Shown: positions 2,490-19,153, counted from the first letter of the stretch. The stretch is 20,995 bases of DNA from Nitrososphaerota archaeon (GCA_002713205.1 PAVW01000008.1:1-20995); one strand, 5' to 3'. The notes: a model not told the origin generated them from the letters alone. A program made the numbers and translations.

Positions 2490-2598
2490 AGGATTTAACG
2501 ATGATGTGTTTTGTTTAAAATCTTAGTCTCTCACTATGCATTACCTGAAATTAGAAGTTTTAGGACACTAATATTTGAACAAGTTTTACCATTTTTGA
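2490..2598 (+). repeat. Left arm of a ~109-bp inverted repeat (21-nt leader plus codons 1-29 of the 2511 gene); partner at 19045-19153
   Basis: Perfect blocks are shared with the partner: ttacctgaaattagaagttttagg (2541-2564 = revcomp of 19079-19102) and aacaagttttaccatttttga (2578-2598 = revcomp of 19045-19065). Confidence 0.85.
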
Positions 2599-3791
2599 AA
2601 GACCGTGATGTTGAAGTTGAATGGTTTATCTATATGCCTGATAGGATTAAACCTCGTTTACAGAAAAATGAGAAATACAAAGTATTAGATTTTTATGATT
2701 ATGAAAATGCTGTGGATCTAATACGTGATGTTAAACCTGATATAATTTATGCTGCAGCATATCCAATCGCACCAGATATAGCCATTAGGTTAGCTGGCAA
2801 ACACTTCAAAATACCTGTAGTTGCTGATGTGGTTTCTCAGGCTGTATCAGAAGATAGATTAAGAAAAATGATACGAACAAATATTTCTGGGTTCTTTCAA
2901 AATTCAGTTTCAACAGATACTAACGAAAATGAAAAACAATTCATGAGAAGAGGAAAGTTTTGGATTAACAAATATCTTTTTTTGTTAAGAACACAACTTG
3001 TTGTAAAAATGAGTCTATTAAAAATTATTGAAGATTTTTTTAGATTTTTTTTAGCCCATGCGAAGTGGAAAAATCTGAACGACCCAAAATTTGCTGTAGA
3101 CTATCATTTTGTTGAAGGTAATTTATTATTTAACAGTTTAATTAAAAGTGGATACAATAAATCAAGTCTGATTTTAACGGGAAACCCTGTATATGATAAA
3201 GTATTTCAAAATTTATCACATATTTCACCATCTACAAAAAATAGTAAGATCCGAGTTTTGTTACTTACTCATAGCATGTACGAACATGGATTATGGACTC
3301 GAAAACAACGTGATGATCTAGTTAAAGTGTTGGTAACTGAAATTTCTAAACACAAAGACGAAATGTCATTGGTTGTAAAAATTCATCCTTCCAGTGAAAT
3401 CCTTTCAGATTATGAAAAATTAATTCATCCTATTGATTCATCAATACCAATTTATCAAAAGGAGGATATCCAAGAATTTCTTAATAATTCTGATGTTGTA
3501 TTAGCATATTCCGCTTCTTCTGGACCCATTCAAGCACTAATTCTAAAAAAACCAATAATCATAATTAATCTAAATCTTGCTGGAGATATAATGTTAGAAA
3601 GAAAAATCGTGACTGAATGTACTGATCCATCCAAAATTGTTTCATCTATTCACCAAGCTATTTCTTCAAATCCTGCAACAGAGAGAAAAATAAATGAGTT
3701 TGTTGAAGATTATATTTTTAAGGCTGATGGACTTGCCTATGAAAGAGTGGGAAAGGCTATAATTGAAATTATTAAGAAATCTAAACATTAG
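2511..3791 (+). CDS. GT-B-like transferase with K-x-HP motif (TagB/TagF-like or CMP-ulosonic-acid transferase-like); candidate NulO transferase
   Basis: 426-aa ORF with a TTG start at 2511; the ATGATG at 2501 is in another frame and stops after 5 codons. LILTGNPVYD and VVKIHPSSE resemble the xTGxPxxD and K-x-HP signatures of glycerophosphotransferases and of bacterial sialyl-/polysialyl-/Kdo-transferases. There is a central amphipathic segment FWINKYLFLLRTQLVVKMSLLKIIEDFFRFFL. The functional call is contextual. Confidence 0.6.
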   Translation: MFKILVSHYALPEIRSFRTLIFEQVLPFLKDRDVEVEWFIYMPDRIKPRLQKNEKYKVLDFYDYENAVDLIRDVKPDIIYAAAYPIAPDIAIRLAGKHFKIPVVADVVSQAVSEDRLRKMIRTNISGFFQNSVSTDTNENEKQFMRRGKFWINKYLFLLRTQLVVKMSLLKIIEDFFRFFLAHAKWKNLNDPKFAVDYHFVEGNLLFNSLIKSGYNKSSLILTGNPVYDKVFQNLSHISPSTKNSKIRVLLLTHSMYEHGLWTRKQRDDLVKVLVTEISKHKDEMSLVVKIHPSSEILSDYEKLIHPIDSSIPIYQKEDIQEFLNNSDVVLAYSASSGPIQALILKKPIIIINLNLAGDIMLERKIVTECTDPSKIVSSIHQAISSNPATERKINEFVEDYIFKADGLAYERVGKAIIEIIKKSKH

Positions 3792-3801
3792 AATTCAGAA
3801 A

Positions 3802-4446
3802 TTAATCTAAAATACTTCTAATTAGTTGAAAAGACTCTGCTCTTTGCAACCCTGATTCTATGCCTCTTTGAACAGACAGATTTTCAATAGATTCAATAGA
3901 TCTAGAATGTGGAAATTCTGTTATTTCGGATTTATACATTCTAAAAGCTCTAATTTTATATGAAAACTCATTTTTTATGTTCTCATAAACTGTTGGTTGA
4001 AAGGGTGTTTTTACTAATCCAGGTAACTCATAACAAAAAACTTGTTTTACATTACTTGATAATGGTCTTGTAGCAACTAAAGTTGATTCAAAAACTAATT
4101 GATGATCCTTGTTTAAATCATTGTGAGGAGTCGTATAGACAATCTGAGAATTATATTTTTGTATTATTTTCTCTAATTCAATGTTGATTTCAAGATGAGG
4201 TACAGAATCTAGTTTCATATCAGAAAATTCTAAAAAGTTGAATGTAGAAATTCCAAGTAGTTTTCCTGCTTTCAGACATGATTTCTTTCTAACTTCTATC
4301 ATCTTGTTATCTTCATACTGTGCAGTTGTACCTTCTGAAACAACACAAAGATCTATTTTGTGATTTTTTTTAGATAATTTTCGTATGGTAGCACCCATTC
4401 CAAGTACTTCATCATCAGGATGCGCTGCGATTACTAAAATATTCAT
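3802..4446 (-). CDS. PIG-L / LmbE family N-acetyl-sugar deacetylase
   Basis: 214 aa. N-terminal ILVIAAHPDDEVLGMG (AHPDDE zinc motif) and downstream TPHNDLNKDHQLV (H-x-D ... DH) are family hallmarks. It is the last gene of a co-directional minus-strand run. Confidence 0.85.
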   Translation of the reverse strand: MNILVIAAHPDDEVLGMGATIRKLSKKNHKIDLCVVSEGTTAQYEDNKMIEVRKKSCLKAGKLLGISTFNFLEFSDMKLDSVPHLEINIELEKIIQKYNSQIVYTTPHNDLNKDHQLVFESTLVATRPLSSNVKQVFCYELPGLVKTPFQPTVYENIKNEFSYKIRAFRMYKSEITEFPHSRSIESIENLSVQRGIESGLQRAESFQLIRSILD

Positions 4447-4464
4447 ATATACTCACAAGTTCAC

Positions 4465-4475
4465 AAATTAAAAAC
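4465..4475 (-). promoter_or_regulatory. TATA-like box upstream of the PIG-L deacetylase gene
   Basis: The minus strand reads gtttttaattt, centred about 24 nt upstream of the ATG at 4446, inside the 68-nt gap after the carbamoyltransferase stop. Confidence 0.3.
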
Positions 4476-4514
4476 TATTTTGGTTTAAACCTTAATTTCA
4501 TATTATTAACACAA

Positions 4515-6230
4515 TTATTTTATTACTAGTTGATTTCCTAAAATTAAATATTCTAAACCACTATTGAAAAATGTGTTTAGTGCATCATTAGGAGACATTA
4601 CTATAGGTTCACCGTTGATATTAAATGATGTATTTAGAACAATTGGAAAACCAGTTAACTTCTCCATTTCTATAAGTATATTATAAAAATTCTTATTATC
4701 TTGTATGTTAACAGTATGCACTCTTGCTGAACCATCAACATGTGTAATAGATGGTAGTTTACTTCTAAATTCTGATTTTACTGGAACTACTTTTTCCATA
4801 TACTTACATTGAAATTTTTCTGGCACATCAAAAAATTTACTTGCTTTTTCCTCAATAATTGATGGAGCAAAAGGTCTGTAACTTTCTCTATATTTGATGA
4901 TTGCATTAATTTTATTTTTCATTTCTGGTATTCGTGGATCAGCTAAAATTGATCTATTTCCTAGTGCTCTTTCTCCAAACTCCATTCTTCCATCAAAACG
5001 GGCTACTATTTTTCCTTCACTAAGAAGTTTAGCTGTAGTTAATGACACATTTTCTAGTTTTTCAGATTTTATTTTACGTCTATCAAGTGCATCAGTTATC
5101 TCATTTTCTGTGTATTCCTTACCCAAATAACTGCTAGTGGACGAATAATCTCGTTTTTCTCCATGAACGCAATGAGAAACATAAAGTGCTGAGCCAATAC
5201 TATTGCCAGCGTCTGTAGGGTCAAAAGATATGTAGAGATTTTTAAATTGAGTCTTATCTAAAATCTTTCCATTCAAAACTGAATTCATAAAAAAACCTCC
5301 ACTGAGAGCAAGGTTTTCATTGTTTGTTTTTTTATAGAGAGTTTCAATCATATGTAGTGCAATTTCTTCTGAAACAGTTTGCATAGCTTTTGCAACTGAA
5401 AAATACCATTCATCAGGTTCTTCTCCTTTTATCCCCTCTCTCCCACCTAGTAAATTTACAAGTTTATCTGTGTATAACTTGGGTTTATCTAAAATGACTC
5501 CTTGATAATATGACTGATCTAATTCAAACAATCCATCTGATGTTAATTTAATAGTTTTACGAATTTTTTCTAGATGTTCTGTGCAATCTACATCAAAAGC
5601 TGATAAGGCCATTACCTTCCATTCATCATATCCATCTCTATAACCCAATAGTTGAGTGTATGTGGCATAAAACATTCCAAGTGAATGTGGTAGTTCTTTT
5701 GTTGAAAATATCTCAATCTCGTTTTCTTTACCAATTCCTAAACTCGTAGTTTGAAATTCTCCTCTCCAATCACATGTTAATATTGCAGCTTCCTTAAACG
5801 GAGACAAAAAAAATGCATTAGCTGCATGAGCTAAATGATGTCTAACGAAATAAATTGGTGGCATTTTATTTTTTTCTGACTGTTGCATCAAAACCCATTC
5901 TGGTGGTGACCTATCTACAAAATTATACAAATTATCAGCTACTGTATAAAAATAATCTTCTCTTTTTGTACGATAAGTGGAAAATAATGGGTTGTATTTT
6001 TGCCAATTTTCACCAGGGTTCCATCCCTGTGCGATATAATCACAATCTTCTAATTTTTTATCTATGAAATCCAAACAAAATTTTACAGCATTTTGAGGAA
6101 ATAATTTTGTTTTTTTATTTCTAGTAATTCGTTCTTCAGGTGTTCCACATACTATTTTTCCATCTATTGATATGGACGCAGTTGAATTTATTTCCCCATG
6201 ATTAAGACCTAGAACTATCAAAACTTTCAA
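4515..6230 (-). CDS. Carbamoyltransferase, NodU/CmcH/TobZ family
   Basis: 571 aa with a TTG start. Hallmark blocks are KVLIVLGLNHGEINSTASISIDGKIVCGTPEERITRNK, VRHHLAHAANAFFLSPF, LALSGGFFMNSVLNG, ITHVDGSARVHTV and VLNTSFNINGEPIV (Carbam_trans_N plus Carbam_trans_C architecture). Confidence 0.9.
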   Translation of the reverse strand: MKVLIVLGLNHGEINSTASISIDGKIVCGTPEERITRNKKTKLFPQNAVKFCLDFIDKKLEDCDYIAQGWNPGENWQKYNPLFSTYRTKREDYFYTVADNLYNFVDRSPPEWVLMQQSEKNKMPPIYFVRHHLAHAANAFFLSPFKEAAILTCDWRGEFQTTSLGIGKENEIEIFSTKELPHSLGMFYATYTQLLGYRDGYDEWKVMALSAFDVDCTEHLEKIRKTIKLTSDGLFELDQSYYQGVILDKPKLYTDKLVNLLGGREGIKGEEPDEWYFSVAKAMQTVSEEIALHMIETLYKKTNNENLALSGGFFMNSVLNGKILDKTQFKNLYISFDPTDAGNSIGSALYVSHCVHGEKRDYSSTSSYLGKEYTENEITDALDRRKIKSEKLENVSLTTAKLLSEGKIVARFDGRMEFGERALGNRSILADPRIPEMKNKINAIIKYRESYRPFAPSIIEEKASKFFDVPEKFQCKYMEKVVPVKSEFRSKLPSITHVDGSARVHTVNIQDNKNFYNILIEMEKLTGFPIVLNTSFNINGEPIVMSPNDALNTFFNSGLEYLILGNQLVIK

Positions 6231-6250
6231 TTGTTTGATTTTTGATTCGC

Positions 6251-6258
6251 ATATAAGA
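6251..6258 (-). promoter_or_regulatory. TATA-like box upstream of the carbamoyltransferase gene
   Basis: The minus strand reads (t)cttatat, centred about 24 nt upstream of the TTG start at 6230, within the 40-nt gap after neuC. Confidence 0.3.
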
Positions 6259-6270
6259 ATTTTTATTTCT

Positions 6271-7416
6271 TTAATAGAACATTTTATTATTAATTAATTT
6301 ATTACTAAGACAAATATTTTCTAAAACTTTTACAATCTTCTCTGATGAGTTTCCTTGACCATAAATTTTTTCCTTCTTTTTCAACATCTTCATTTTAAAT
6401 GCTTTTTTAATTGCTGAAGTTACATCGTTAGTGGTATTTGCATCAATTCGAATGATATTTTTTCCTACTTCTCTATTATGCTGTCTAATTCCAATTTGTA
6501 TTATAGCTGTGTCAAAATAACTTCCTTCAATAATACCACTACTTGAATTTCCTATTAATAATCTACAATTTTTTAACATTCCAAGATAATCTGCTCTAGG
6601 AATTGTTGGATAATATTTGATGAAACTATATTTTTTTGAATATTTCTTCATATACGAAAAAATAATTTTGTTTCCAGCATCAGAGTTTGGAGCAATTACA
6701 ATGGTTGTTTTTTGTTCTTTAACGATTGCATCTAAAATATTTTTAATGTAAGACTCAGTTTTTTGAGAACCTGATGTAACAGGATGTTGTACAACTAAAA
6801 TTTCATTATTGGTAAACTTAATACCATATTTTTTTTCTAAAGTTTGTTTATCAGAAATTTTATTATTTGCTATTTCATCAATACCTGGCGAACCTGTTAA
6901 AAAAACAGTTTTTGGGTTCTCGCCCATTCTAATAATTCGGTTCTTACTTTTCTTTGTTGCAGGGAAATGTATATTAGAAATTTTAGTTATTGCATGCCTA
7001 TTATATTCATCAATACCTGCTCCAGTTATGTCGCCTCCGTGAATATGAGCATTAGGTATGTTCATATGATAAGCAGCTATACATGATGCAAGTACCTCAT
7101 CCCTATCACCTAATACCAAATTAATATCAGGTCTTAATTTTTTAAAAACTTTGGAAAATTGTAAAATTCCTTCTCCAACTGAAGAAGCCATGTGAAAACC
7201 AGAATCACCCTTAGGAACCATACCAATTTTTGAATAAATCTTAAAACCATCTTTTTTAATTTCGTTAACAGATAATCCATGTTTCTTTGAAAGATGCATT
7301 CCGGAAACAATTAGAAACAAATCTAATTTTCTATTTTTTAAGATCTTTTTTAAAACTGGTCGAATTAGCCCATATTCAGCCCTTGTACCTGTAGTAACAG
7401 AAATTTTTCTTTTCAT
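6271..7416 (-). CDS. neuC: UDP-(di)N-acetylhexosamine 2-epimerase, NDP-hydrolysing (NeuC/LegG-like)
   Basis: 381 aa. VTTGTRAEYGLIRPV, LVLGDRDEVLA, HIHGGDITGAGIDEYNRHAITKISNIHF and LIGNSSSGIIEG match the conserved blocks of the hydrolysing NeuC subfamily as I remember them (xRAEYG, GDRxE, HIHGGE, GNSSSG). Only a 2-nt gap separates it from the upstream formyltransferase stop. Confidence 0.85.
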   Translation of the reverse strand: MKRKISVTTGTRAEYGLIRPVLKKILKNRKLDLFLIVSGMHLSKKHGLSVNEIKKDGFKIYSKIGMVPKGDSGFHMASSVGEGILQFSKVFKKLRPDINLVLGDRDEVLASCIAAYHMNIPNAHIHGGDITGAGIDEYNRHAITKISNIHFPATKKSKNRIIRMGENPKTVFLTGSPGIDEIANNKISDKQTLEKKYGIKFTNNEILVVQHPVTSGSQKTESYIKNILDAIVKEQKTTIVIAPNSDAGNKIIFSYMKKYSKKYSFIKYYPTIPRADYLGMLKNCRLLIGNSSSGIIEGSYFDTAIIQIGIRQHNREVGKNIIRIDANTTNDVTSAIKKAFKMKMLKKKEKIYGQGNSSEKIVKVLENICLSNKLINNKMFY

Positions 7417-7418
7417 TT

Positions 7419-8339
7419 TTATCCTAAAATTGAATCCACATTATCTTTTGTAAATATTTTTGATATTGGAACTTCTTTGTTATCATTAAAACTAATTCTT
7501 TTTAAAATTATTACACCTTTACCAGTACCAATTTTCACATTAAAATTATTTACATGCATAATCTTGCCAATACCCTTACTTTGTTCATTAGAGAATTCTG
7601 CACCCCAAATTATTAATTTTGACCCATTAAAAATTGTGTACGCACCAGGATATGGATGAGTAGTAGCACGAATAAGTGTATGAATTTCTTGTGAATTTCT
7701 TGACCAGTCTATAATTCCATCTTGCGGTCCCCGTTTTTCCCAATTTTCTATAAAATTAGAAACATCTTGTTTTTTTCTTGTATAATTTCCATTTTGAAGT
7801 TTTGTTAGATTATCTTGTATCATTTCTTTTCCAACAGATTCAACTTTTTTATAAACTGATGTTGCATCATCATTTGAGCTCAATTTAAAAGATCTTTGAT
7901 CAAGAATATCACCATTATCAGTTCCCTCTTCAATGAAAAAAAATGTTAACGCACTTGTTTTCAATCCCTTTAAAATTGACCATGGAATGGGTGCCCGTCC
8001 ACGATATTTTGGTAATTCGGTAGGGTGAGAACCAATCACACCTATTTTAGGTATAGAAATAATTTCAGAATTTAATAACTGTGACCAACCCATAACTAGT
8101 ATTATGTCTGGTTCTATTTTTTTAATAATTTCAATATTGTTTTGAGCGTTAATTTTATCTACTTTAATATTTTGTAAATTATACTTTGAACAAAGTTCAT
8201 CTAAAGATATAAAATCACTAATTTTTTCCTTCTTAGAATCATCATAACTGAACACAACTGAAATGTTCCAATTATTCTCTAGAATAGTTTTGAGTATTTC
8301 ATAACTAAATTTAACTCCTCCAATGAAAATAATTTTCAT
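7419..8339 (-). CDS. Formyltransferase (Fmt/ArnA-N/sugar N-formyltransferase-like)
   Basis: 306 aa. MKIIFIGG, PDIILVMGWSQLL, GVIGSHPTELPKYRGRAPIPWSI (compare Fmt INVHGSLLPRWRGAAPI, from memory) and GTDNGDIL (compare LDTGDM), plus a C-terminal Fmt-like domain. Confidence 0.85.
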   Translation of the reverse strand: MKIIFIGGVKFSYEILKTILENNWNISVVFSYDDSKKEKISDFISLDELCSKYNLQNIKVDKINAQNNIEIIKKIEPDIILVMGWSQLLNSEIISIPKIGVIGSHPTELPKYRGRAPIPWSILKGLKTSALTFFFIEEGTDNGDILDQRSFKLSSNDDATSVYKKVESVGKEMIQDNLTKLQNGNYTRKKQDVSNFIENWEKRGPQDGIIDWSRNSQEIHTLIRATTHPYPGAYTIFNGSKLIIWGAEFSNEQSKGIGKIMHVNNFNVKIGTGKGVIILKRISFNDNKEVPISKIFTKDNVDSILG

Positions 8340-8359
8340 GTATATCTAATTAAAAATCC

Positions 8360-8369
8360 TTTAATTAAA
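8360..8369. promoter_or_regulatory. Perfectly palindromic TATA-like element (TTTAATTAAA) in a 54-bp divergent spacer
   Basis: It is centred about 26 nt from the formyltransferase ATG (8339, minus) and about 29 nt from the NeuB-like ATG (8394, plus). It is its own reverse complement. Confidence 0.4.
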
Positions 8370-8393
8370 ATGTGCAACTAACAATCATACGAT

Positions 8394-9083
8394 ATGGTCT
8401 TTATTGTTGCAGAAATTGGAGTGAACTGGGACGGGGATTTTGACTTAGTGAAACAAATGATGAATGAATCAAAACTACTTGGATTAAATGCTGTGAAATT
8501 TCAAGCATTTACATTTGAGATGGTAAAAAATCATCCTGAATCTAATAGACTAATGAATTCATCAATTACCAAAGAAAATATAGAAAAAATTAATGATATT
8601 TCTCAAGAAGTTGGAATTAACTGGTTTTGTACTCCAATGTATCCAGATGCTGTTAATTTTTTAGATAGATTTGTTTCTAGATACAAAATAAGAGAATTTG
8701 ATGGTCGTGAAATAATTCAATCAAATCAAACTGATTTATTTCAAACTATTTATAAAAAACATAAGAACATATTCATAAGTTCTGAAACAGTTCCAGTTAA
8801 TTGTTCATTTTATAATGATCCACAGATCAAATGGCTTTATTGTATTCCTAAATATCCATGCGGTCTTGACGATATCGATTTTTCTCTTTTAAAACATTTT
8901 GATGGTTTTTCAAATCATTGTAATTTAATTGAGGCACCAATTCGTGCATTACATGAGGGTATTGAAATCCTTGAAATCCATGTTACTTCTGATAAAACTA
9001 AAGATTTCGTTGATAATAACGTGAGTTTTGATTATGATGAAATTAAAGACATCATGAAAGTAGCAAAAGTTATCAATTCATAA
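8394..9083 (+). CDS. NeuB-family nonulosonic acid synthase-like protein, TIM-barrel only (no SAF domain)
   Basis: 229 aa. FIVAEIGVNWDGDFDLVKQMMNESKLLGLNAVKFQAF aligns to the NeuB N-terminal block EIGxNHxG...VKxQ. WFCTP, YKIREFD, WLYCIPKYP, GFSNHCN and LEIHVTSD align to FISTP, YKIGSGE, LLHCxxxYP, GLSDHT and LERHFT of N. meningitidis NeuB (from memory), so both metal-ligand His positions are retained. The ORF ends at 9083 and only 95 nt of non-coding DNA follow. Confidence 0.7.
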   Translation: MVFIVAEIGVNWDGDFDLVKQMMNESKLLGLNAVKFQAFTFEMVKNHPESNRLMNSSITKENIEKINDISQEVGINWFCTPMYPDAVNFLDRFVSRYKIREFDGREIIQSNQTDLFQTIYKKHKNIFISSETVPVNCSFYNDPQIKWLYCIPKYPCGLDDIDFSLLKHFDGFSNHCNLIEAPIRALHEGIEILEIHVTSDKTKDFVDNNVSFDYDEIKDIMKVAKVINS

Positions 9084-9148
9084 AATTTAGATGGAAAATG
9101 ATAAAATCTTCTAGAAACACTACAGTTGATTTGTGTTAATAAACTAGA

Positions 9149-9160
9149 AATTATATATAT
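9149..9160 (+). promoter_or_regulatory. TATA-like box upstream of aminotransferase 1
   Basis: aattatatatat is preceded by a purine-rich agaaa (BRE-like) and lies 19-30 nt upstream of ATG 9179, consistent with a leaderless or very short-leader archaeal transcript. Confidence 0.45.
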
Positions 9161-9178
9161 TGAAAGAGAGATAATGAT

Positions 9179-10312
9179 ATGAAAAATTGGAAAATACCTT
9201 TATACAAAATCTATACAGATGACGAGGATGTAAATTTAATCACAAAGGTAATCAAAAGGGGCTCTTCTTGGGCATTAGGACCAGAAATTGAAGAATTTGA
9301 AAACGCAATTAAAAACTATGTTGGTGTTGATTATTGTGCAACTCTAAATTCTGGTACTTCTGCATTACATGCAACTTATTTAGCATATGGAATCAAAGAT
9401 GGTGATGAAGTTATAATACCATCATTTTCATTTATTTCCACAGCAAACTCTGTTATGTTTGTAAATGCAAAACCAATTTTTGCAGATATTGAAGAAACAA
9501 CACTTGGATTAAATCCAGAACTACTTGAAGAAAAAATTTCAAGTTCCACGAAAGCAATAGTCCCTATGGATTATGGTGGTCTTTCATGTAATATTTTTGA
9601 AATTAATAATGTTGCTAAGAATAATAATATTTTATTGATTGAAGATGGTGCAGAGGCATTAGGTTCATCTGTACATGGGAAAAAAGTTGGCAGTGTTTCT
9701 GATTCGACAATATTTAGTTTCTGTGGTAATAAAGTACTAACTACTGGTGAGGGCGGTGCAGTAGTGACAAATTCTAAAGATATCTATGAAAAAATAAAAA
9801 TGGTTCGCTCACACGGCAGAATTAGTCAAATTGATTATTTTAATGACCCAAAAGGATCACAGTATATAGAACTTGGCTATAATTGGAGGATGTCTTCTTT
9901 AACTGCAGCTTTAGGAATATCACAACTTGGAAAACTTGATAAAATTATTAAAATGAGGAAAGAAAATGCAGAATATATCTCAGCCCGACTCTCAAAATTT
10001 ACACAAATTACACCTTTAACTCCCCCTGTTGGGTATGATCATATTTATCAAATGTACACAATTAAACTGCCAGATAGAAAAATCCGTAACTCTCTACATA
10101 ATTATCTTTTAGATAAGAGAATCTTCTCAAAAATCTATTTTGAACCAATTCATTTAACTGATTTTTATCGCCAAAAATTTGGCATAAAAGATGGTGCATT
10201 ACCAATCACAGAAAAAATATCTCAATGCATACTGACAATTCCTATTTATCCGAATATGACTATGGAAGAAAAAACATATCTTGTTGAATCAATTTCTGAT
10301 TTTTTTGAATAA
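9179..10312 (+). CDS. PLP-dependent sugar aminotransferase, DegT/DnrJ/EryC1/StrS family (PseC/LegC/PglE-like)
   Basis: 377 aa. GPEIEEFENAIKNYVGVDYCATLNSGTSALHA, IIPSFSFISTANSV, DGAEALGS, FSFCGNKVLTTGEGGAVVTN (PLP lysine) and WRMSSLTAALGISQL. Confidence 0.9.
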   Translation: MKNWKIPLYKIYTDDEDVNLITKVIKRGSSWALGPEIEEFENAIKNYVGVDYCATLNSGTSALHATYLAYGIKDGDEVIIPSFSFISTANSVMFVNAKPIFADIEETTLGLNPELLEEKISSSTKAIVPMDYGGLSCNIFEINNVAKNNNILLIEDGAEALGSSVHGKKVGSVSDSTIFSFCGNKVLTTGEGGAVVTNSKDIYEKIKMVRSHGRISQIDYFNDPKGSQYIELGYNWRMSSLTAALGISQLGKLDKIIKMRKENAEYISARLSKFTQITPLTPPVGYDHIYQMYTIKLPDRKIRNSLHNYLLDKRIFSKIYFEPIHLTDFYRQKFGIKDGALPITEKISQCILTIPIYPNMTMEEKTYLVESISDFFE

Positions 10313-12333: not shown

Positions 12334-13503
12334 TTGACTAAACGATTTAACGACAAGGAAATTGAAGCAGTAAAAAATGTCATAGAAAACGGCAAATATC
12401 TTTCAGGATTTACAACAAAGTTTAGAGGAGGTGAAGAGGTACAGAAATTTGAAAAGGAATTTGCTAAATACATTGGTGTGAAGTATGCACTATGTGTAAA
12501 CTCTGGGACATCTGCATTATTTATTGCATTCAAGACTGCTATTCAATATGGTAAAAAAACTAAAAATTCTAAATTAATAAAACCAAATATCCATCTTCCT
12601 GCATATACTTTTACTGCTGATCCAAGTGCTGCGCTTCAAGTGGGTGGTAAAATAGTTTTTGAAGATATTGATAAGAAATCATACTGTATGTTGAAGCCTA
12701 AAATACACACTCCGATATGTGTTCCAACACATTTGTTAGGAAATGCAATACAGCCATCAAATTTTGGAAAAACTGAATTTTTAATAGAAGACTGTTGTCA
12801 ATCTTTGGGAACTCGGGTTGGTCAAAGAATGGTGGGTAGTTTTGGAGCAATGAGCATATTTAGTTTTCAAGAAACAAAACATATTACAACACTTGGAGAA
12901 GGTGGAATGATATGTTCTGATAATGAAGAATTAATTGAGATTGCGGCTGCAATTAGAAATCATGGTGAATATTACCAACAAAAAAATTATTTTGGCGGTA
13001 ATTTTCGTATGACAGAAGCGCAAGCCGCATTTGGAAGAATACAACTAAAAAAAATCAATTCTATTCTGAAAATGTTTAGAACTAATGCTAAACAAATAAT
13101 AAAAAAACTTCCAAACGGTATTATTCCACCATACATAAACCATAAAGTAGAACACTCATTTTTAGTAATTGGTTGTTTATATGACAAAAAAATAATTGGT
13201 GTTGATAGAGAAATTTTCTTAAAAAAACTTACAGCAAACAGAAAGCATATTCTAGAAATGGATGAAAAATCAGATATAAAAGGTATTAATATGAAATCTG
13301 GGAAATTAATTTCTTCAGGTTATTCAATTCCTCTTTATAACGTTCCACTCTTCAAGAAATTTAAGCCTAAGAATGGTTGTAAAAATGTAGAAGACATAAT
13401 AAAAAAATCATTTTGGATGGACATTCACAAGTTTAGAACTAGTGAAGAAATATCTGAAGAAATTGATATTTTAAATGATACTATAACAAAATTTCAACAA
13501 TGA
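12334..13503 (+). CDS. Second DegT/DnrJ/EryC1-family sugar aminotransferase
   Basis: 389 aa with a TTG start 6 nt after the oxidoreductase stop. GEEVQKFEKEFAKYIGVKYALCVNSGTSALFIA, EDCCQSLG, FSFQETKHITTLGEGGMICS and FRMTEAQAAFGRIQL. Its stop overlaps the next start (ATGA at 13500-13503). Confidence 0.85.
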   Translation: MTKRFNDKEIEAVKNVIENGKYLSGFTTKFRGGEEVQKFEKEFAKYIGVKYALCVNSGTSALFIAFKTAIQYGKKTKNSKLIKPNIHLPAYTFTADPSAALQVGGKIVFEDIDKKSYCMLKPKIHTPICVPTHLLGNAIQPSNFGKTEFLIEDCCQSLGTRVGQRMVGSFGAMSIFSFQETKHITTLGEGGMICSDNEELIEIAAAIRNHGEYYQQKNYFGGNFRMTEAQAAFGRIQLKKINSILKMFRTNAKQIIKKLPNGIIPPYINHKVEHSFLVIGCLYDKKIIGVDREIFLKKLTANRKHILEMDEKSDIKGINMKSGKLISSGYSIPLYNVPLFKKFKPKNGCKNVEDIIKKSFWMDIHKFRTSEEISEEIDILNDTITKFQQ

Positions 13504-14210
13504 AAATTATATCTATAATAACTGCACGCTCTGGCTCTAAGGGGGTTCCCCACAAAAACATCCGAAATCTTGGTGGAATACCACTGTTAGGTTGGGGTGT
13601 GAAAGCAGCCAGTAAATCGAAGATGATTAACAAAATTATACTATCAACTGATTCAGAAGAATATTTCAAAATTGCAAATTCATTTAATGACGAAATAATT
13701 TTTCATAAACGAACTCCCGAGTTAGCAGAAGATGTTCCTTCCGAGTTGGTATTGTTAGATGTGATTAATAAATTCGATGAACTTTTTGATGATGATGCTA
13801 TTATTGTTTTAATACAACCAACTACACCGTTTGTATCACATATTGATATTGACACGTGTATTGAAAAATTAATAAAAAATCCACATGTGAATAGTTGTAT
13901 TACTGTAAAAGAAGTAACAGAACATCCTGAATGGGTAATAAATAAAAAAGAAAATTTTGATGATATTGGAGAATGTCTTGATCTATCTGGAAGTTTTTCC
14001 GTGAGGCAAAATCTGAAAAAAAGATGGATTGCTAATGGTGGTGCATATGCAATAAGAAAATCATTTTTTGAAAAAAATAAAAAAATAATAGATGAAAAAA
14101 ATACTCTTGTTCATGAAATGCCAAAAATAAAAAGTTTAGACATAGATGAAGAATATGATTTCATGTTATGTGAATTATTAGCAAATTCTGGATTAGTGAA
14201 TCCAGAATAA
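13500..14210 (+). CDS. neuA: CMP-nonulosonic acid synthetase (acylneuraminate cytidylyltransferase; NeuA/LegF/PseF-like)
   Basis: 236 aa. IISIITARSGSKGVPHKNIRNLGGIPLLGW carries the ARxGSKxxxxKN signature of CMP-sugar cytidylyltransferases; VLIQPTTPF is also present. It is translationally coupled to the preceding aminotransferase. Confidence 0.9.
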   Translation: MKIISIITARSGSKGVPHKNIRNLGGIPLLGWGVKAASKSKMINKIILSTDSEEYFKIANSFNDEIIFHKRTPELAEDVPSELVLLDVINKFDELFDDDAIIVLIQPTTPFVSHIDIDTCIEKLIKNPHVNSCITVKEVTEHPEWVINKKENFDDIGECLDLSGSFSVRQNLKKRWIANGGAYAIRKSFFEKNKKIIDEKNTLVHEMPKIKSLDIDEEYDFMLCELLANSGLVNPE

Positions 14211-14231
14211 GTTTTTAAAATTATTGATTAG

Positions 14232-14243
14232 CTTATATTAAAG
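14232..14243 (+). promoter_or_regulatory. TATA-like box upstream of the small ORF / DUF115 / B12-rSAM unit
   Basis: cttatattaaag lies 28-39 nt upstream of ATG 14271. This suggests the DUF115 and B12-rSAM genes can be transcribed independently of neuA. Confidence 0.4.
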
Positions 14244-14270
14244 ACAAATTAAGTTATTGTTAGTAGAAAA

Positions 14271-14435
14271 ATGAAAAAAAAACTATTATGTGGTAATTAT
14301 GAACCAAAAGTTAATCCTGAAGTAGAAATCTCTGAACCAAAAAACGAACCTGAATTTGAAACAGAAGCACTCAAACATCTTGGTGGAAGCATAGCATTTG
14401 TGAGGGGTGATAAGTTCTATGAAGAAAATAACTGA
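14271..14435 (+). CDS. Hypothetical small acidic protein (54 aa), not in the supplied ORF track
   Basis: ATG at 14271 to TGA at 14433-14435 reads MKKKLLCGNYEPKVNPEVEISEPKNEPEFETEALKHLGGSIAFVRGDKFYEENN. A TATA-like box (cttatattaaag, 14232-14243) lies about 30 nt upstream, the same geometry as other genes here. The ORF overlaps the start of the DUF115 gene in another frame. There is no homology evidence, so it could be a chance ORF in the 196-nt spacer. Confidence 0.3.
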   Translation: MKKKLLCGNYEPKVNPEVEISEPKNEPEFETEALKHLGGSIAFVRGDKFYEENN

Positions 14436-15321
14436 TAATGAACTTCTTGATATTATAACCAAAAGTACATTAGAAATTCATGGTCCTATGTGGCTTGAGA
14501 ATATACAATATAATGAAAAAAAATATGGGTTCAACGATACATTAAATGGAATTAAAATAAAATCGTCTAAAACATTAGTAATTGCTGCAGGTCCTACTTT
14601 CAAGAAAGTTTTTGGAAAAAACTTTCAAGAGATTATGAAAAAAAGAAATGAAATAACCATTGTGGCATGTGATGGAGCATTATCAATGCTTACCGAGATT
14701 AACTGTATTCCGGACTATGTTGTTTCCGTAGATGGTGATCCAATAATTGCAAATTTTTATAAAAAATCTAAAAAAATTCTTCGAGGTGTAACTGTGATTC
14801 TAGCTACATCAATTAATCCAAATGTAGTCAAGGAATGTATTGATGCTGGTGCTAAAATAAAATGGGTTCAACCATTCTTCAGAAATAATTCTGAAGAAGA
14901 ATTCTTTAGAGATGGAATTACATCTATAAAGATGGGAGGAAATGTTGGAACTGCATCATACATTCTAACAGCATTTGCACTTAAAGGGAATCCAATTGGG
15001 TTAATGGGAATAGAATTTGCGTGGAGTGATGATACACCATATAGCGATACACAATATTATAACCAGCTTATGAAATCATTTGATAAAAACCAAGAAAAAG
15101 TTGAAGAACAATTTATTCATGTTAATAATCCAAGAAATGGTAATGTATACATTGCAGATCCAGTGTATTATGCGTATTTCTTAATGCTTAAAGAGATTTG
15201 GAGTGAACTTCCTTCAGAAATTAAGGATAATACCTATAATCTAACTAGTGAGGGGATACTAAATATTGCCGATTTAAAATATATACATATTAAAAAGTTC
15301 TTAGAATTAGAACAGAAATGA
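14419..15321 (+). CDS. MptE-like / DUF115 (Maf, MAF_flag10) domain protein; candidate CMP-NulO-dependent protein glycosyltransferase
   Basis: The ORF is open from 14404. The track uses GTG 14407; I prefer ATG 14419, which is preceded by an SD-like gaggggtga (14402-14410). The core KTLVIAAGPTFKK ... ITIVACDGALSMLTEINCIPDYVVSVDGDP fits the G-P-S/T ... D-x-A ... P-D-x-x-x-x-D signature of the DUF115 domain. Its stop overlaps the next gene's start. Confidence 0.75.
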   Translation: MKKITDNELLDIITKSTLEIHGPMWLENIQYNEKKYGFNDTLNGIKIKSSKTLVIAAGPTFKKVFGKNFQEIMKKRNEITIVACDGALSMLTEINCIPDYVVSVDGDPIIANFYKKSKKILRGVTVILATSINPNVVKECIDAGAKIKWVQPFFRNNSEEEFFRDGITSIKMGGNVGTASYILTAFALKGNPIGLMGIEFAWSDDTPYSDTQYYNQLMKSFDKNQEKVEEQFIHVNNPRNGNVYIADPVYYAYFLMLKEIWSELPSEIKDNTYNLTSEGILNIADLKYIHIKKFLELEQK

Positions 15322-16916
15322 AAATATTATTTATTAATCCAGTAGTAAGATATTTCGATGAACCTCGTCATGTTCCATTAGGCATGCTTCAATTAATGGG
15401 CATACTAGAAAGGGATCATCCTAAAGTAAAATTTCAGTTGTATGATGCCAATGCATTTAGAATTGATAATATGGAAACTGGTGAAACAAAAGGATTAGAT
15501 CAAGTTCTGTCAGCAGAAGAGTTTGATGTTATTGCAATTGGAGGATTAATTACAGCGTATAGATATATTCGACAAGCCGTTAAAAGATGTAAACAATTAC
15601 AACCACATGCAAAGATAATTGCAGGTGGAGGTTTCTATACTGCAACACCATATGATATGATGGATCTTCTACAAGAAATTGATTATGGAGTAGTAGGAGA
15701 AGCGTATTTGACTCTGCCTGAACTTTTAACCGTAATAGATAAAAATGAAGAGCCTTCAAACGTAAAAGGAATTTTTTATCGTAAAGATGGAATAATAAAA
15801 TTTTCTGAACCAAGAGAATTAATTCCAGATATGGATTGGCTACCTTTTCCAGCATACAAATATGCACCACTTGAAATCTATTTCAAAAATTCTGGTATAT
15901 TAATGAGCGAAGTATCAATGACATCGCAAAAGAGACTAGATGCATGTATGAGTTTATCTTGTCCATTTCTTTGTAGGTTTTGTTGGGATTTAGGAATTAC
16001 ATCCAATACAAAAATGAAAGTTGTAGATGGAAAACCTGAACCAGTGACAGGTAGACCTGGAAGAGACAGTATAATTAGGCAGCATTCACCTGAATATTTT
16101 GCAAAATATATCAAACATCTACGGGATGATTATTTAGAAATTCCTAGTGATGATAATGGCAATGGTATTGGAAGTCCTGTTGATTTTATAGCATTAGTTG
16201 ATGAAAATGTTGTAGCTCATGATGCTCAAACTGGATTTACATGGTTAAAAGGCATAAAGGAAGAATTATGGAAACAGGATCTTGTTCCAAATTGTGTAAA
16301 AAAAGGAGTTCCTCATGATTCAAAAATTTGTGATGGGCCACATTTTGGAGGTGCCAGTCATGCTGGTCTAGTGAATAAAGAGATGTTAAAAACTTTGAAA
16401 GATATTGGTTTTACTTATTTGGATTATGGTCTTGAGCATTGGGATCGTAAAATACTAAAAAATCTTGGTAAAGGTACTACACTAGAAGCTAATGCAAGAT
16501 GTATTCAATGGACATTAGAATCAGGAATTAGTCCTATTCCAAATCAAATAATTATGTTTCCAGAAGAAGATTGGGATACACTAAATACAATGATAGATGC
16601 GTGGGAAAAATACAATATAGTTAGTACTCCGTTTATTTGTACACCATATCCAGGTTCAGAGTGGTACATAACATACAAAGACCTCATTCTACAACAATAC
16701 AATAATAATTTAGAATCATTCATACTGGATTTAGAAGATGCAACGAAGGTTACAGCATTACTGACAAAAGATTTTTCTCCAGCAGAGGCTGTAGGTATAC
16801 AAAATATTATGTCTCAAGCTGCAAGAACAGGAGATTTTAAGAATGCAAGAAGGTTATTGGCAATTTCGAAGAGAATGCATGAATCTCGTTTAAGTTTGGC
16901 CATGAGTACAAAGTAG
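15318..16916 (+). CDS. B12-binding-domain radical SAM protein (class B architecture; putative methylase)
   Basis: 532 aa. The N-terminal Rossmann-like cobalamin-binding-type domain has KILFINP, FDVIAIGGLITAYRYI and AKIIAGGGF. It is followed by SLSCPFLCRFCW (CxxxCxxC). ATGA overlap with the DUF115 gene at 15318-15321. Confidence 0.85.
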   Translation: MKILFINPVVRYFDEPRHVPLGMLQLMGILERDHPKVKFQLYDANAFRIDNMETGETKGLDQVLSAEEFDVIAIGGLITAYRYIRQAVKRCKQLQPHAKIIAGGGFYTATPYDMMDLLQEIDYGVVGEAYLTLPELLTVIDKNEEPSNVKGIFYRKDGIIKFSEPRELIPDMDWLPFPAYKYAPLEIYFKNSGILMSEVSMTSQKRLDACMSLSCPFLCRFCWDLGITSNTKMKVVDGKPEPVTGRPGRDSIIRQHSPEYFAKYIKHLRDDYLEIPSDDNGNGIGSPVDFIALVDENVVAHDAQTGFTWLKGIKEELWKQDLVPNCVKKGVPHDSKICDGPHFGGASHAGLVNKEMLKTLKDIGFTYLDYGLEHWDRKILKNLGKGTTLEANARCIQWTLESGISPIPNQIIMFPEEDWDTLNTMIDAWEKYNIVSTPFICTPYPGSEWYITYKDLILQQYNNNLESFILDLEDATKVTALLTKDFSPAEAVGIQNIMSQAARTGDFKNARRLLAISKRMHESRLSLAMSTK

Positions 16917-16955
16917 AAATTATTTGTAATTATATTATTTTAATAATTCAAAAAA

Positions 16956-17999
16956 TTAATCTGAAATATATGAAACATTTTCAATACAGCTCTTACAAGC
17001 AGGATTTTTAGTATAGTCCCCATTTTTATGCATCTCACGCAATTTTTTCATTTTTTCAGAGTTCCAAATCTCACCTAATGATTCTTTTTTCCAGTTACCC
17101 ATAACTAAATCAACTGCATAAAAACTACAACACCCTAAGACATCACCATTTCCTCTTAGTGTCATTCTCTTAAATGGTTCAGGACAATGAAATTTTTTTG
17201 GTGGCTGTCGAGTATTTTCTAAAGCTATCTCATCTTTTTTTGAAGGATCCTTAAATTTTCCATCACCAAATGGGTCTAATAACCTTTGAGCACCTAAGCT
17301 ATCAACCCTATCTTTCCAATAGTCTACAAATTGATCATATTCATGATCATTTATCTTCGATCTAACAAAACTTAAGCGTAATTTTGGTAATTTTGATTTC
17401 ATATTTTTTCTTATTTCCATAAAATCATGAATGTTCTTTACTGTAGCTTTAAGATTTCCACCTACACGAATCTTTTCATATGTTTCTTCAGTTACCGCAT
17501 CTAATGAAATATTAATTTTTGTGAGTCCAGATTCTATTAGTTTTTTCGACATTTCTTTAGTCAGTAATGTACCATTAGTAGTTATTATAACATCTAAAAT
17601 TCCAACGTCAGATGCATATTTAATAAATTGATCAATATCTTGGCGAATTAACGGTTCATTAATGTAACAAAGTCTAATAGATTTTGTACCTTGTGATACA
17701 GCTTCTTTTATTAATTTTTTATAATCTTCAAAAGTAAACCAATCTTCCTTTTTTTCAACTGTAGTTTCCGTAGACCAGGTACACATTGGACATCTCAAAT
17801 TACACGAATAATTCAACTCAAGCTCTAAATGGGAAGGATATTTTGTCTCAATTTCCAATCGTGAACACTTTTCCCAATTCTCTCTATACGAATTCCAGCG
17901 TTCAGCACCTTTAGAGTCAATAAAATCTTTCTCATATTCATCAGTAAAATAAAGATTTTCTGAAAATCCACCATCAAAACTTTTTTTTCCTTTAATCAA
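16956..17999 (-). CDS. Radical SAM protein with partial SPASM / twitch-type C-terminal auxiliary-cluster domain
   Basis: 347 aa with a TTG start (a TAA lies immediately upstream in frame). YSCNLRCPMCTW gives CxxxCxxC. The C-terminus HCPEPFKRMTLRGNGDVLGCC ... MGNWKKESLGEIWNS ... ACKSCIENVSYISD gives C-X12-G-X4-C ... C-X2-C, and then the protein ends. Confidence 0.85.
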   Translation of the reverse strand: MIKGKKSFDGGFSENLYFTDEYEKDFIDSKGAERWNSYRENWEKCSRLEIETKYPSHLELELNYSCNLRCPMCTWSTETTVEKKEDWFTFEDYKKLIKEAVSQGTKSIRLCYINEPLIRQDIDQFIKYASDVGILDVIITTNGTLLTKEMSKKLIESGLTKINISLDAVTEETYEKIRVGGNLKATVKNIHDFMEIRKNMKSKLPKLRLSFVRSKINDHEYDQFVDYWKDRVDSLGAQRLLDPFGDGKFKDPSKKDEIALENTRQPPKKFHCPEPFKRMTLRGNGDVLGCCSFYAVDLVMGNWKKESLGEIWNSEKMKKLREMHKNGDYTKNPACKSCIENVSYISD

Positions 18000-18094
18000 T
18001 TAGAAAAATATTAAATTTTAGATATTTAATGGTTGAGTCATAATAAAGAATATAATTTTAGAATACTACTGAATTAGTGAACTACTCTGAGGTG

Positions 18095-19003
18095 TTATTT
18101 TTTTAATGCCTTCATATGAAGATAACCTTCATTGAATAAAATTTTAGCCAAATCTGATTCATAATTGTGATATAGCGGGCTCAAAAATTGTCTAATGTTG
18201 TTAAATTTTGGATATCTTGTTAATCTTTTAATATCTACAAATCCGTTATTTTCTAGCCAGTTTACAACATCATCTATTGGCGTTTCGTCATAAATCGGTG
18301 TTTGTATTCGATCTTTTATTGTTAAAATTAAATCATTATCAATCAATGATGTAATTGTATCTAAAGGAATTTTATTTATTATCGGTTCATCATGTTTTTC
18401 TAATTCAGTATATATCAAGTTAAGCGATTCCATAATTTTTTGTTCGGTTAAATTATCTATCAATGATTTAAAATTCAAATTTTTTGTATATTCATTTCTA
18501 AGCACTTTAGTTATTTGTGAAAAAAGTCCACCAGCTCCAAATATTGAAAAATATAATGTGCCCCCATGTTTTGTCACTCTCGATAATTCTGAAAGCCCAC
18601 CAAACAAATCTGTTGTACTATGCAAAACACCGTTACAATACACAAAATCAAAGAAATTATCTTCATATGGAATATCTAAAACACTTCCACTTTTTAATTC
18701 ATATTTTCCTTCAAATTTTTTCAAAAATTTTTGTGCTGTTTCTATAAATGATGGTTCAACATCTAAATCAAATGCATGAACTTTTTTTGCTCCCAAATTT
18801 ATTAACGCTCTGGTTCCGTTTACATTTGAACCACATCCTGCATCTAAACAAATTTTATCATTAAAGAATGATTCATCTACCTGAAAGAATTCATGAGAAA
18901 TCATTGAGGTTATTCTATCATATATGGATTCATCATTTCCTTGTTCACAATGAATTTCGTGATAAACTTCTCTTGTTCGTTTTTCGATTTCTTCAGAATC
19001 CAT
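18095..19003 (-). CDS. Class I SAM-dependent methyltransferase
   Basis: 302 aa. Motif I is ICLDAGCGSNVNGTRAL; post-I is KVHAFDLD; also FDFVYCNGVLHS and KHGGTLYFS. It is co-directional with, and 95 nt upstream of, the SPASM radical SAM gene. Confidence 0.85.
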   Translation of the reverse strand: MDSEEIEKRTREVYHEIHCEQGNDESIYDRITSMISHEFFQVDESFFNDKICLDAGCGSNVNGTRALINLGAKKVHAFDLDVEPSFIETAQKFLKKFEGKYELKSGSVLDIPYEDNFFDFVYCNGVLHSTTDLFGGLSELSRVTKHGGTLYFSIFGAGGLFSQITKVLRNEYTKNLNFKSLIDNLTEQKIMESLNLIYTELEKHDEPIINKIPLDTITSLIDNDLILTIKDRIQTPIYDETPIDDVVNWLENNGFVDIKRLTRYPKFNNIRQFLSPLYHNYESDLAKILFNEGYLHMKALKK

Positions 19004-19044
19004 TGTTAATTAAATCCAGACCAAGCCACCAACTTAAAAAAGTA

Positions 19045-19153
19045 TCAAAAATGGTAAAACTTGTTAAAATATTATTTCCCTAAAACTTCTAATTTCAGGT
19101 AACGTATAATTGGTGATTAAAATTTTAACCAAACCACACCATCGTTAAATCCT
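19045..19153 (-). pseudogene. Stump (leader plus ~29 codons, in-frame TAA at codon 23) of a diverged homologue of the gene at 2511
   Basis: The reverse complement of 19045-19153 aligns without gaps to 2490-2598 (hand count: 94/109 identical). It translates from TTG (19132-19130) as VKILITNYTLPEIRSFREIIF*QVLPFL, versus FKILVSHYALPEIRSFRTLIFEQVLPFL for the intact gene. Confidence 0.8.
19045..19153 (-). repeat. Right arm of the ~109-bp inverted repeat (decayed copy)
   Basis: See the left arm. There are 15 substitutions and no indels over 109 nt in my hand alignment. Similarity ends abruptly at both borders. Confidence 0.85.

Follow-up and report, generated by a model that had tools for sequence, protein, structure and literature searches.

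In the O-antigen and capsule loci of bacteria (those of Escherichia coli and Salmonella, the cps locus of Streptococcus pneumoniae, and the K loci of Klebsiella), remnant gene fragments lie at the junctions of cassettes. In Campylobacter fetus, the S layer undergoes antigenic variation through inversions that depend on RecA and take place between sapA homologues at their conserved 5' regions; these common regions are several hundred base pairs long and nearly identical, the partner genes are complete, and both orientations are observed. In invertons, such as the capsule promoters of Bacteroides fragilis, fimS of E. coli, and hin of Salmonella, a dedicated recombinase acts on short near-perfect repeats that enclose a small promoter segment. 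Among archaea, marine ammonia-oxidizing archaea (AOA) carry a glycosylation flexible genomic island (fGI) that is large and highly variable, and replacement-type fGIs are described in marine prokaryotes, including Nitrosopelagicus brevis CN25 and Nitrosopumilus catalinensis SPOT01 (preprint 10.1101/2024.04.23.590705).

The window analyzed here, i.e., the whole stretch of 20,995 nt (GCA_002713205.1, PAVW01000008.1:1-20995), comes from a population of marine Nitrosopumilaceae, an ammonia-oxidizing archaeon. As in the glycosylation fGIs, it contains a strain-variable cluster of glycosyltransferase and sugar-biosynthesis genes inside which synteny decays, and each version is nearly clonal (0.07 to 0.44% divergence here). 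Whereas the islands of the preprint are described at the level of gene content (10.1101/2024.04.23.590705), we deal with a single probable scar at the nucleotide level and with one allelic crossover point. The locus shares with O-antigen and capsule loci the presence of truncated, disabled glycan-gene pieces at joins and of crossovers in conserved gene ends, but its host is archaeal, it has no IS elements, and its relic is inverted with respect to a live copy 16.4 kb away, which generates a long-range inverted repeat. A preliminary description of the window, which had noticed this repeat, offered three readings: a scar left at the conserved 5' end of a gene, a past inversion, or an ongoing one. 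We consider it probable that the repeat is a recombination scar in a strain-variable glycosylation island; since the arms are two opposed copies of one gene start, the inverted repeat would be a by-product and not a device.

A 109-nt inverted repeat that includes the start of a live gene

A repeat search of the window returned two arms of 109 nt, at positions 2490 to 2598 (plus strand) and 19045 to 19153 (minus strand), which are 86% complementary and lie 16446 nt apart; the runner-up inverted pair in the window reached 37 nt at 76%. Aligned without gaps in inverted orientation, the arms are identical at 94 of 109 positions. Their opposite-strand self-BLAST score was 130 bits. First-order Markov shuffling of the window, repeated 100 times, never gave more than 55.4 bits (median, 36.5), which excludes a chance origin, while an assembly artifact is excluded by the 17 independent contigs that cover the right junction. 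The longest perfect run between the arms is a mismatch-free block of 24 nt (2541 to 2564, plus strand, corresponding to 19079 to 19102) that spans codons 11 to 18, and a further identity block of 21 nt joins 2578 to 2598 with 19045 to 19065. The repeats of ~109 bp and ~86% identity reported in the preliminary description were thus reproduced computationally, the two blocks and the TAA that it placed at codon 23 of the right copy proved correct, and the arms do enclose every open reading frame (ORF) from 2511 to 19003.

The left arm consists of a 21-nt leader, codons 1 to 29, and the first base of codon 30 of a live gene (2511 to 3791, plus strand) that starts with TTG and encodes a GT-B-fold protein of 426 amino acids. 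Its product resembles the Epimerase_2 and Glyphos_transf families: it matches Pfam PF02350 at 1e-09, its homologues carry PF04464, and the closest PDB folds to its AF2 model (pLDDT 85) are UDP-GlcNAc 2-epimerases, with TM scores of 0.5 to 0.55. Two NCBIfam matches remained below threshold, namely, the BFO_1060 glycosyltransferase (58 bits, cut-off 200) and TIGR04396 (41 bits, cut-off 125). In the loci compared, the GT-B gene always lies within clusters of the nonulosonic acid (NulO) type, and its earlier labeling as a putative NulO transferase is plausible. Divergent from it lies the gene of a 474-amino-acid membrane protein with 12 hydrophobic segments (917 to 2341, minus strand), a putative "flippase" in the preliminary description, for which a family search returned no match.

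The repeat does not behave as a known structured RNA or regulatory element, which was ruled out on three grounds: an Rfam search of the repeat gave nothing at the gathering score, its folding did not differ significantly from that of shuffled sequence (z = -0.06 and -1.26), and a 9-bp hairpin within the 24-nt block is not conserved in other alleles. The arm sequence was found solely at the starts of GT-B genes and in the one stub at 19045 to 19153. A 24-nt match at locus L027, picked up in the metagenome pattern scan, falls by chance within an unrelated ORF of 583 amino acids and was dropped as a further copy.

The right arm is a disabled stub of the same gene

The right arm is a homologous, truncated, and disabled pseudogene stub of a second allele of the GT-B gene, cut off on both sides and comprising the final ~21 nt of the leader together with codons 1 to 29. 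Its translation reads LVKILITNYTLPEIRSFREIIF*QVLPFL, compared with LFKILVSHYALPEIRSFRTLIFEQVLPFL in the live gene, and what remains is a 22-codon ORF, MVKILITNYTLPEIRSFREIIF (19064 to 19132, minus strand), closed by a TAA (19064 to 19066) at codon 23, where live alleles have GAA. At codon 19 (19076 to 19078, minus strand), the stub has GAA (Glu) and all live alleles have ACA (Thr); this T19E change affects a nearly invariant position (conservation of at least 90% in the family alignment). When the live protein was searched against the window with tblastn, residues 1 to 29 matched 19132 to 19046 (E = 7.6e-8) and nothing further did, and no other gene relics were found in the window. Limits were set against six live-allele sequences, five of them distinct (L024 being the same as L026). 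In local alignments, homology to the stub begins between -17 and -24 and runs until +84 to +88, ending at +87 or +88 in five of the six; as all six yield essentially the same limits, an extension of the stub past 19045 or 19153 was rejected.

Over the 109 nt, the stub is 78 to 86% identical to live alleles, which are themselves 79 to 91% identical to one another. Most of its differences are states that also occur in live alleles (V2, I6, T7, T10, and I20, with N8 in P0003), and only six states are private to it, including the changes from ACA to GAA at T19 and from GAA to TAA at codon 23. Because the differences fall within the variation of live alleles, the arms must already have been distinct alleles; judged by this comparison, they represent two alleles and would not derive from a fresh duplication.

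Directly downstream of the stub and on the same strand lies a gene for a class I SAM methyltransferase (MT; 18095 to 19003, minus strand). Sequence comparison delimits a junction spacer of 41 nt between the point where homology to the stub ends and the ATG of the MT gene (19004 to 19044, minus strand), for which no match was found outside the present population. On the other side, a strain-specific spacer of 76 nt (19154 to 19229), which sister strains do not have in common, separates the stub from the gene for GDP-mannose 4,6-dehydratase (gmd; 19230 to 20321, plus strand). Neither spacer had a match among any of the fetched loci, and the MT cassette could not be traced to a source, the second-nearest homologue, P0239, standing in an unrelated context. 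Synteny breaks at the stub, with homology to sister strains extending rightward from 19239 and the MT gene on its left absent from loci L026 and L037; this break adds to the homology with a functional gene and to the truncation and disablement that mark the stub as a relic.

The stub could also have been exapted as a promoter, as a 5' leader whose 22-codon ORF lies upstream of the MT and SPASM genes, or as both, an addition that is compatible with a scar and that we regard as rather unlikely. The stub, the MT gene, and the SPASM gene all point in the same direction, with 41 nt between the stub and the MT start. An A/T-rich box, TTTTTTGTAAAAAAT, located ~30 to 44 nt upstream of the TTG of the stub, stands, as we read the sequence, at a distance from the start similar to that of the conserved CGAAAATMATTTAAC box upstream of live alleles. 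Against this, the T-rich box in the 41-nt spacer could by itself serve the MT gene, and the stub has neither an Rfam family nor a significant RNA structure. Its invariance is uninformative on this point because the whole island differs by only 0.07 to 0.44% among contigs.

A single orientation in the population

The right junction is present on the 17 independent contigs in forms that are identical or two SNPs apart, and 3 contigs carry the left junction without any difference, one contig spanning both junctions. All contigs, from many samples, are collinear with the window in a single orientation, at a divergence of 0.07 to 0.44%; they are consensus sequences, which represent the majority arrangement and in which minority arrangements are not visible. 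A metagenome scan with the repeat core detected no hybrid junctions. No recombinase or transposase domain was identified in the 18 complete ORFs of the window, in agreement with the preliminary description, which had seen no recombinase gene there, and the search for recombinase genes was equally negative over 10 kb to the right (L001/L002) and 5.9 kb to the left (L036).

These data bear on the proposal that the arms form an active switch, in which homologous recombination of the RadA type would flip the 16.4-kb interval at low frequency. A crossover in the 24-nt block would exchange the promoter and the N terminus of the GT-B gene, a crossover in the 21-nt block would turn the gene off, and the MT and radical-SAM genes would come to lie behind the other promoter. 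The product logic worked out earlier for each identity block is correct, yet nothing shows that such crossovers happen. The geometry fits, with inverted repeats flanking a segment, homologous crossover between alleles has occurred within the repeated segment (locus L036, see below), and assemblies report the majority arrangement only. A model for such a mechanism is the sapA inversion of C. fetus, in which opposed conserved gene starts likewise flank a multikilobase segment and recombination moves a promoter between surface-structure genes. Here, by comparison, the repeat is 109 nt long and 86% identical, one of the partners no longer functions, and only a single orientation is seen. Inverted repeats next to surface-glycan genes also recall invertons, but the short near-perfect repeats, the small promoter segment, and the dedicated recombinase of these systems are all absent. 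Repeated exchange would keep the arms nearly identical, whereas their longest perfect run does not exceed 24 nt and one of them has accumulated private decay mutations. Together with the uniform orientation at both junctions, at consensus level, and the lack of hybrid junctions, this makes an active switch very improbable. If it were true, marine AOA, an abundant group, would have in this switch their first proposed mechanism of phase variation, toggling the GT-B transferase and rewiring the promoters of surface-sugar modification genes.

Distant relatives carry a full-length gene at the stub position

A genome scan with a single protein as the query found nothing, and homologues were recovered with an alignment as the query. 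In locus L030, a full-length GT-B homologue is directly divergent from gmd across a spacer of 224 nt, and in L028, the two genes are divergent with 1.15 kb between them. In both L033 and L035, the genes that come after the full-length one are B12-rSAM, MptE, CMP-transferase, AT2, and GFO, all on the minus strand; when the MT and SPASM genes are skipped, the same series follows the stub in the window. Read from gene order, the position and orientation of the stub thus correspond to those of full-length genes in distant genomes. The GT-B proteins of these genomes are just 37 to 43% identical to the live one, and the stub, unlike them, belongs to the close allele group; among close relatives (GT-B allele at least 76% identical), no intact copy beside gmd was found.

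Based on these comparisons, we suggest that an earlier lineage carried a GT-B copy that adjoined gmd and pointed away from it, an arrangement that persists in some other Nitrosopumilaceae. A different allele would have come to lie at the far end of the cluster within the membrane-protein/GT-B/PIG-L block that is common to close relatives. The copy on the gmd side would have lost everything from codon 30 onward, its place now being taken by the methyltransferase and radical-SAM/SPASM genes, and the stub would afterwards have acquired its stop codon together with a small number of changes of its own. The order of these events, and whether the loss occurred by deletion, insertion, or cassette exchange, we infer only. 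The disabled stub, the homologues at the same position, and the crossover in L036 all favor the first of the three readings proposed earlier, a scar at a conserved gene 5' end. In a variant of this scheme, the stub could be a patch of 109 to 112 nt copied into the gmd spacer instead of the remains of a resident gene, a possibility raised by the facts that all close live alleles adjoin the membrane-protein gene and that the upstream motif common to them is absent from the stub.

The same gene orders could be taken as the outcome of a single past inversion of the whole module, before which the GT-B gene would have stood beside gmd. The B12-rSAM/MptE/CMP-transferase/AT2/GFO block is oriented relative to the stub as it is after the full-length gene in L033, L035, and L038, and it is inverted relative to the live copy; single-gene inversions are known in the island, as the SPASM gene of the window and L026 is flipped with respect to that of L037 and L038. 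However, inversion alone does not duplicate a gene start, so two copies would have been required beforehand, and many positions that distinguish the arms also vary among live alleles. Moreover, L024, L026, L036, and L037 keep the live gene next to the membrane-protein gene, the spacer upstream of it being conserved, and in L037, the GFO, AT2, and CMP-transferase genes are oriented as in the window with no sign of a stub within its 8.7-kb contig, which ends short of gmd. We therefore judge a past inversion improbable; for inversion of either kind, past or ongoing, positive evidence is lacking, and the contigs uniformly show a single orientation.

In L038, only 128 nt lie between the membrane-protein gene and gmd, which point directly away from each other; this resembles an empty site and might suggest that the arms are the terminal inverted repeats of a mobile element that brought the 16.6-kb module into the spacer between these two genes. 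In that locus, however, the nonulosonic-acid genes lie just past the GDP-sugar genes, which points to a rearrangement and not to an empty site. Transposase and integrase genes are absent, as is a target-site duplication (GCCATAAGGA outside the left arm and GTAGATTTTT outside the right arm). The left "end" would be the translated start of a conserved gene, through which the homology of relatives passes, and the arm sequence is confined to GT-B gene starts and one stub. We give a mobile element next to no credence.

Crossovers in gene starts and stubs at joins

By its title, the preliminary description implied that the repeats delimit the unit that varies between strains, which is not supported on either side. 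In L024, L026 (a locus on a 56-kb contig), and L036, the membrane-protein/GT-B/PIG-L block is continuous through the left arm. The module is mosaic in its interior as well (L025, L026, and L037), with gene orders that differ in L026, L037, and L038. On the right, three sister strains whose gmd products are 94, 87, and 84% identical to that of the window (amino acids, tblastn) have nothing in common with it upstream of 19239; synteny sets in inside the gmd start, 86 nt beyond the arm. In the comparison of related strains that had been proposed as a check, synteny breaks also elsewhere, including at the gmd start.

By itself, the repeat is of little importance. It serves as a caution, in that a long-range inverted repeat bracketing a functional module can amount to no more than the start of a live gene and a defunct copy of that start, and it has modest value as a nucleotide-level record of the reshuffling of an AOA glycosylation island. 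That record shows crossovers in the conserved 5' ends of genes, at the gmd start in the three sister strains and at 2535 to 2549 in L036. The latter interval, placed by informative sites, lies inside the left arm, and allelic crossovers do occur in this 5' segment, the one that the stub also represents: L036 is of the window type to the left of the interval and of the L026 type to the right, in a patch that extends to ~3140. Accordingly, L036 is 99 to 100% identical to the window from ~950 to ~2545, 80 to 87% identical up to ~3140, and 88 to 99% identical thereafter, while its patch from ~2545 to ~3140 is 88 to 98% identical to the L026 allele. The record also includes stubs at joins, the GT-B stub in the window being one and 107 nt of the methyltransferase gene, left at a junction in L025, another.

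A glycosylation island with a duplicated gene start

The window carries a nonulosonic-acid-type cluster comprising a PseB-like dehydratase, two DegT aminotransferases, NeuB, a CMP-transferase and a 2-epimerase, together with an MptE/Maf-like protein, a formyltransferase, a carbamoyltransferase, PIG-L, two radical-SAM enzymes and a methyltransferase (MT). The cluster is flanked on one side by a GT4 gene and a 12-segment membrane protein, and on the other by gmd (GDP-mannose 4,6-dehydratase) and a C-methyltransferase gene. This content fits the single large, highly variable glycosylation flexible genomic island reported for marine AOA (preprint 10.1101/2024.04.23.590705). The gene at 917-2413, called a flippase in the preliminary description, encodes a predicted membrane protein with 12 hydrophobic segments and without a match to any Pfam or NCBIfam family; it could act as a flippase, as a polymerase or in another role. 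The NeuB-like ORF (8394-9083) encodes only 229 aa, lacks the usual C-terminal domain and lies far under the NCBIfam cut-offs (85 bits vs 400 for NeuB, 70 bits vs 340 for PseI); loci L028 and L029 of other genomes also have this short form, and NeuB of L038, a more distant relative, has 354 aa.

The preliminary description had placed an inverted repeat around the module, and a repeat search of the window recovered it at 2490-2598 and 19045-19153 (109 nt, 86% complementary), the runner-up inverted pair being 37 nt long at 76%. Ungapped comparison showed that the arms are identical at 94/109 positions, with perfect blocks of 24 and 21 nt and an in-frame TAA in the right copy, as had been reported. 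Self-BLAST on the opposite strand scored 130 bits, whereas 100 Markov shuffles reached at most 55.4 bits (median 36.5). Neither an Rfam family nor a significant RNA fold was found at the repeat.

The left arm consists of the last 21 nt of the leader and codons 1-29 of an ORF of 426 aa (2511-3791, TTG start), hereafter the live gene. Its product matches Pfam Epimerase_2 weakly, and homologues also match PF04464 and are labelled "CDP-glycerol glycerophosphotransferase family" in Nitrosopumilaceae MAGs. The AlphaFold model (pLDDT 85) resembles known structures of UDP-GlcNAc 2-epimerases (TM 0.5-0.55, 11-16% identity), which assigns the protein a predicted GT-B fold. NCBIfam yielded only sub-threshold matches, to a BFO_1060-family glycosyltransferase and a "surface carbohydrate biosynthesis protein"; given family matches this weak and similarity at the level of the fold, the label "NulO transferase", judged from gene context, is plausible but unproven. 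The MptE/Maf-like protein, which weakly matches the flagellin modification protein PseD, is a candidate alternative nonulosonic-acid transferase; its gene overlaps by 4 nt that of a B12-binding radical-SAM enzyme of methyltransferase type (14407-16916), a pair conserved in loci L033, L035 and L042.

The right arm as a probable remnant of a second allele

The right arm, or stub, lies on the minus strand at 19045-19153, within the 226-nt gap between the starts of MT (19003) and gmd (19230), and translates as LVKILITNYTLPEIRSFREIIF*QVLPFL. Homology to the live gene ends after codon 29, and nothing of the protein beyond this codon is detectable at the right arm. Against six live-allele sequences of other strains, homology begins at -17 to -24 and runs through +84 to +88, so the stub is a fragment limited on both sides. 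It is 78-86% identical to live alleles over 109 nt; identity among the live alleles themselves is 79-91%. Most differences between stub and left arm segregate among live alleles (V2, I6, T7, T10 and I20, with N8 in the homologue P0003), and just six states occur in the stub alone, including two changes that convert the nearly invariant Thr19 to Glu and one that converts Glu23 to a stop. The shared segregating states and the few private ones argue, from sequence comparison, that the arms were already distinct functional alleles and that the stub has since decayed only slightly. On the sole basis of a reading of A/T-rich boxes, the stub may serve as promoter or leader for MT. A five-codon upstream ORF (ATG ATG TGT TTT GTT TAA, 2501-2518), overlapping the TTG start by 8 nt, is conserved in the stub (19125-19142, minus strand) and in 5/5 of the distinct live alleles compared, as MMCFV, MMLFG, MMYFV, MIYFG and MVWFG; it could support termination-reinitiation at the TTG or be a mere by-product of conserved codons 2-3.

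In more distant Nitrosopumilaceae genomes, the position of the stub is occupied by a full-length homologue, directly divergent from gmd in L030 (224-nt spacer) and 1.15 kb from it, also divergent, in L028. In L033 and L035, the homologue is followed by B12-rSAM, MptE, CMP-transferase, AT2 (aminotransferase) and GFO, all on the minus strand; in the window, MT and SPASM (radical-SAM/SPASM gene) come first after the stub, and this same series comes next. These positions are the main support for the proposed truncation of a resident copy at the stub site, with the caveat that the GT-B proteins of these genomes are only 37-43% identical to the live protein. The close alleles found (76-86% aa) all adjoin the membrane-protein gene, and they have in common an upstream motif that is missing from the stub.

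A recombination scar is the best-supported explanation of the repeat. A second GT-B allele would once have stood beside gmd, opposed to the other copy, and would have lost its body, in whose place MT and SPASM now lie; such a history would leave the start of one gene in two opposed copies. We infer that a deletion, an insertion or a cassette exchange removed the body; no origin was traced for the 41-nt junction spacer or the methyltransferase cassette. The scar, which the preliminary description had preferred and placed at a conserved gene 5' end, is thus upheld in substance by the anatomy of the stub, the allelic nature of the arms and a crossover in a related strain (L036). A single past inversion would reverse the intervening segment and cannot create a duplication. 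A transposon-like element also fails, as no transposase in the window and no target-site duplication was found, and homology is continuous across the left arm. Homologues of MT at 44-46% identity are listed under bacterial names (Omnitrophica, Vecturithrix), a hint that the gene has been exchanged between domains.

Orientation and variability of the island

Identical proteins are encoded on marine metagenome contigs from Tara Oceans and elsewhere, and the homologues that carry names belong to Nitrosopumilaceae or Nitrosarchaeum MAGs. Seventeen independent contigs carry the right junction (MT, stub, gmd), 14 of them identical and three with two SNPs, and the TAA of the stub is kept in 17/17; the left junction is on three contigs, one of which spans both. 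All are collinear with the window at 0.07-0.44% divergence, and scanning metagenomes for the core of the repeat revealed no hybrid junction. Since this version of the island is nearly clonal, the invariance of the stub is uninformative about selection. An inversion switch, for which opposed arms could serve as substrate, is not supported: there is no second orientation among the contigs, no recombinase in the window and no homogeneity between the repeats. The SNPs in the MT-gmd spacer (L018, L019, L023) are at 19103 and 19022/19025; that at 19103, only in L018 and L019, turns stub codon 10, ACG, into ACA, with the third base then as in the GCA of the live allele, and could reflect chance or gene conversion.

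Up to ~2545, L036 matches the window at 99-100% identity; there follows a ~600-nt patch of the allele type of L026, another relative, after which identity is again 88-99%. Informative sites map the crossover to 2535-2549, which falls within the left arm and overlaps the 24-nt block, and this documents homologous exchange between alleles at the conserved GT-B gene start. In the same long-read contig (ctg123202_2x_l), the membrane-protein and GT-B genes (L036 6809-9684) are both split by frameshifts, which given 2x coverage are probably sequencing errors rather than real pseudogenes.

The proposal that the arms bracket an invertible or exchangeable unit is not supported: beyond the single orientation, the membrane-protein/GT-B/PIG-L block is unbroken across the left arm in L024, L026 and L036, and these relatives break from the window near 908, 4484, 14220/16832 and 18033, so that the variable unit is not delimited by the arms. 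L037 and L038 have yet other gene orders. In L038 (1775-4548), the membrane-protein gene and gmd diverge directly from a shared 128-nt spacer, with the nonulosonic-acid genes on the far side of the GDP-sugar genes; relative to the window, the two modules have changed places. Sister strains whose gmd is 94, 87 and 84% identical (aa, tblastn) share no sequence with the window upstream of 19239, each having a different neighbour there. The favoured joins are gene starts in general. A second relic of the stub's kind is a 107-nt methyltransferase-gene fragment (L025 671-775, 92.5% identical to window 18233-18339, in the gene interior) at the junction between the carbamoyltransferase and aminotransferase genes of a related strain. 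The inverted repeat is ordinary for a known kind of hypervariable island, here seen in an archaeon and at nucleotide resolution. The SPASM gene (window 16956-17999, L026 2984-4012, L037 7593-8633, L038 13091-14113) reads the same way as the CMP-transferase gene in L037 and L038, but in the window and in L026 it reads the opposite way, indicating that single-gene inversions have occurred in the island.
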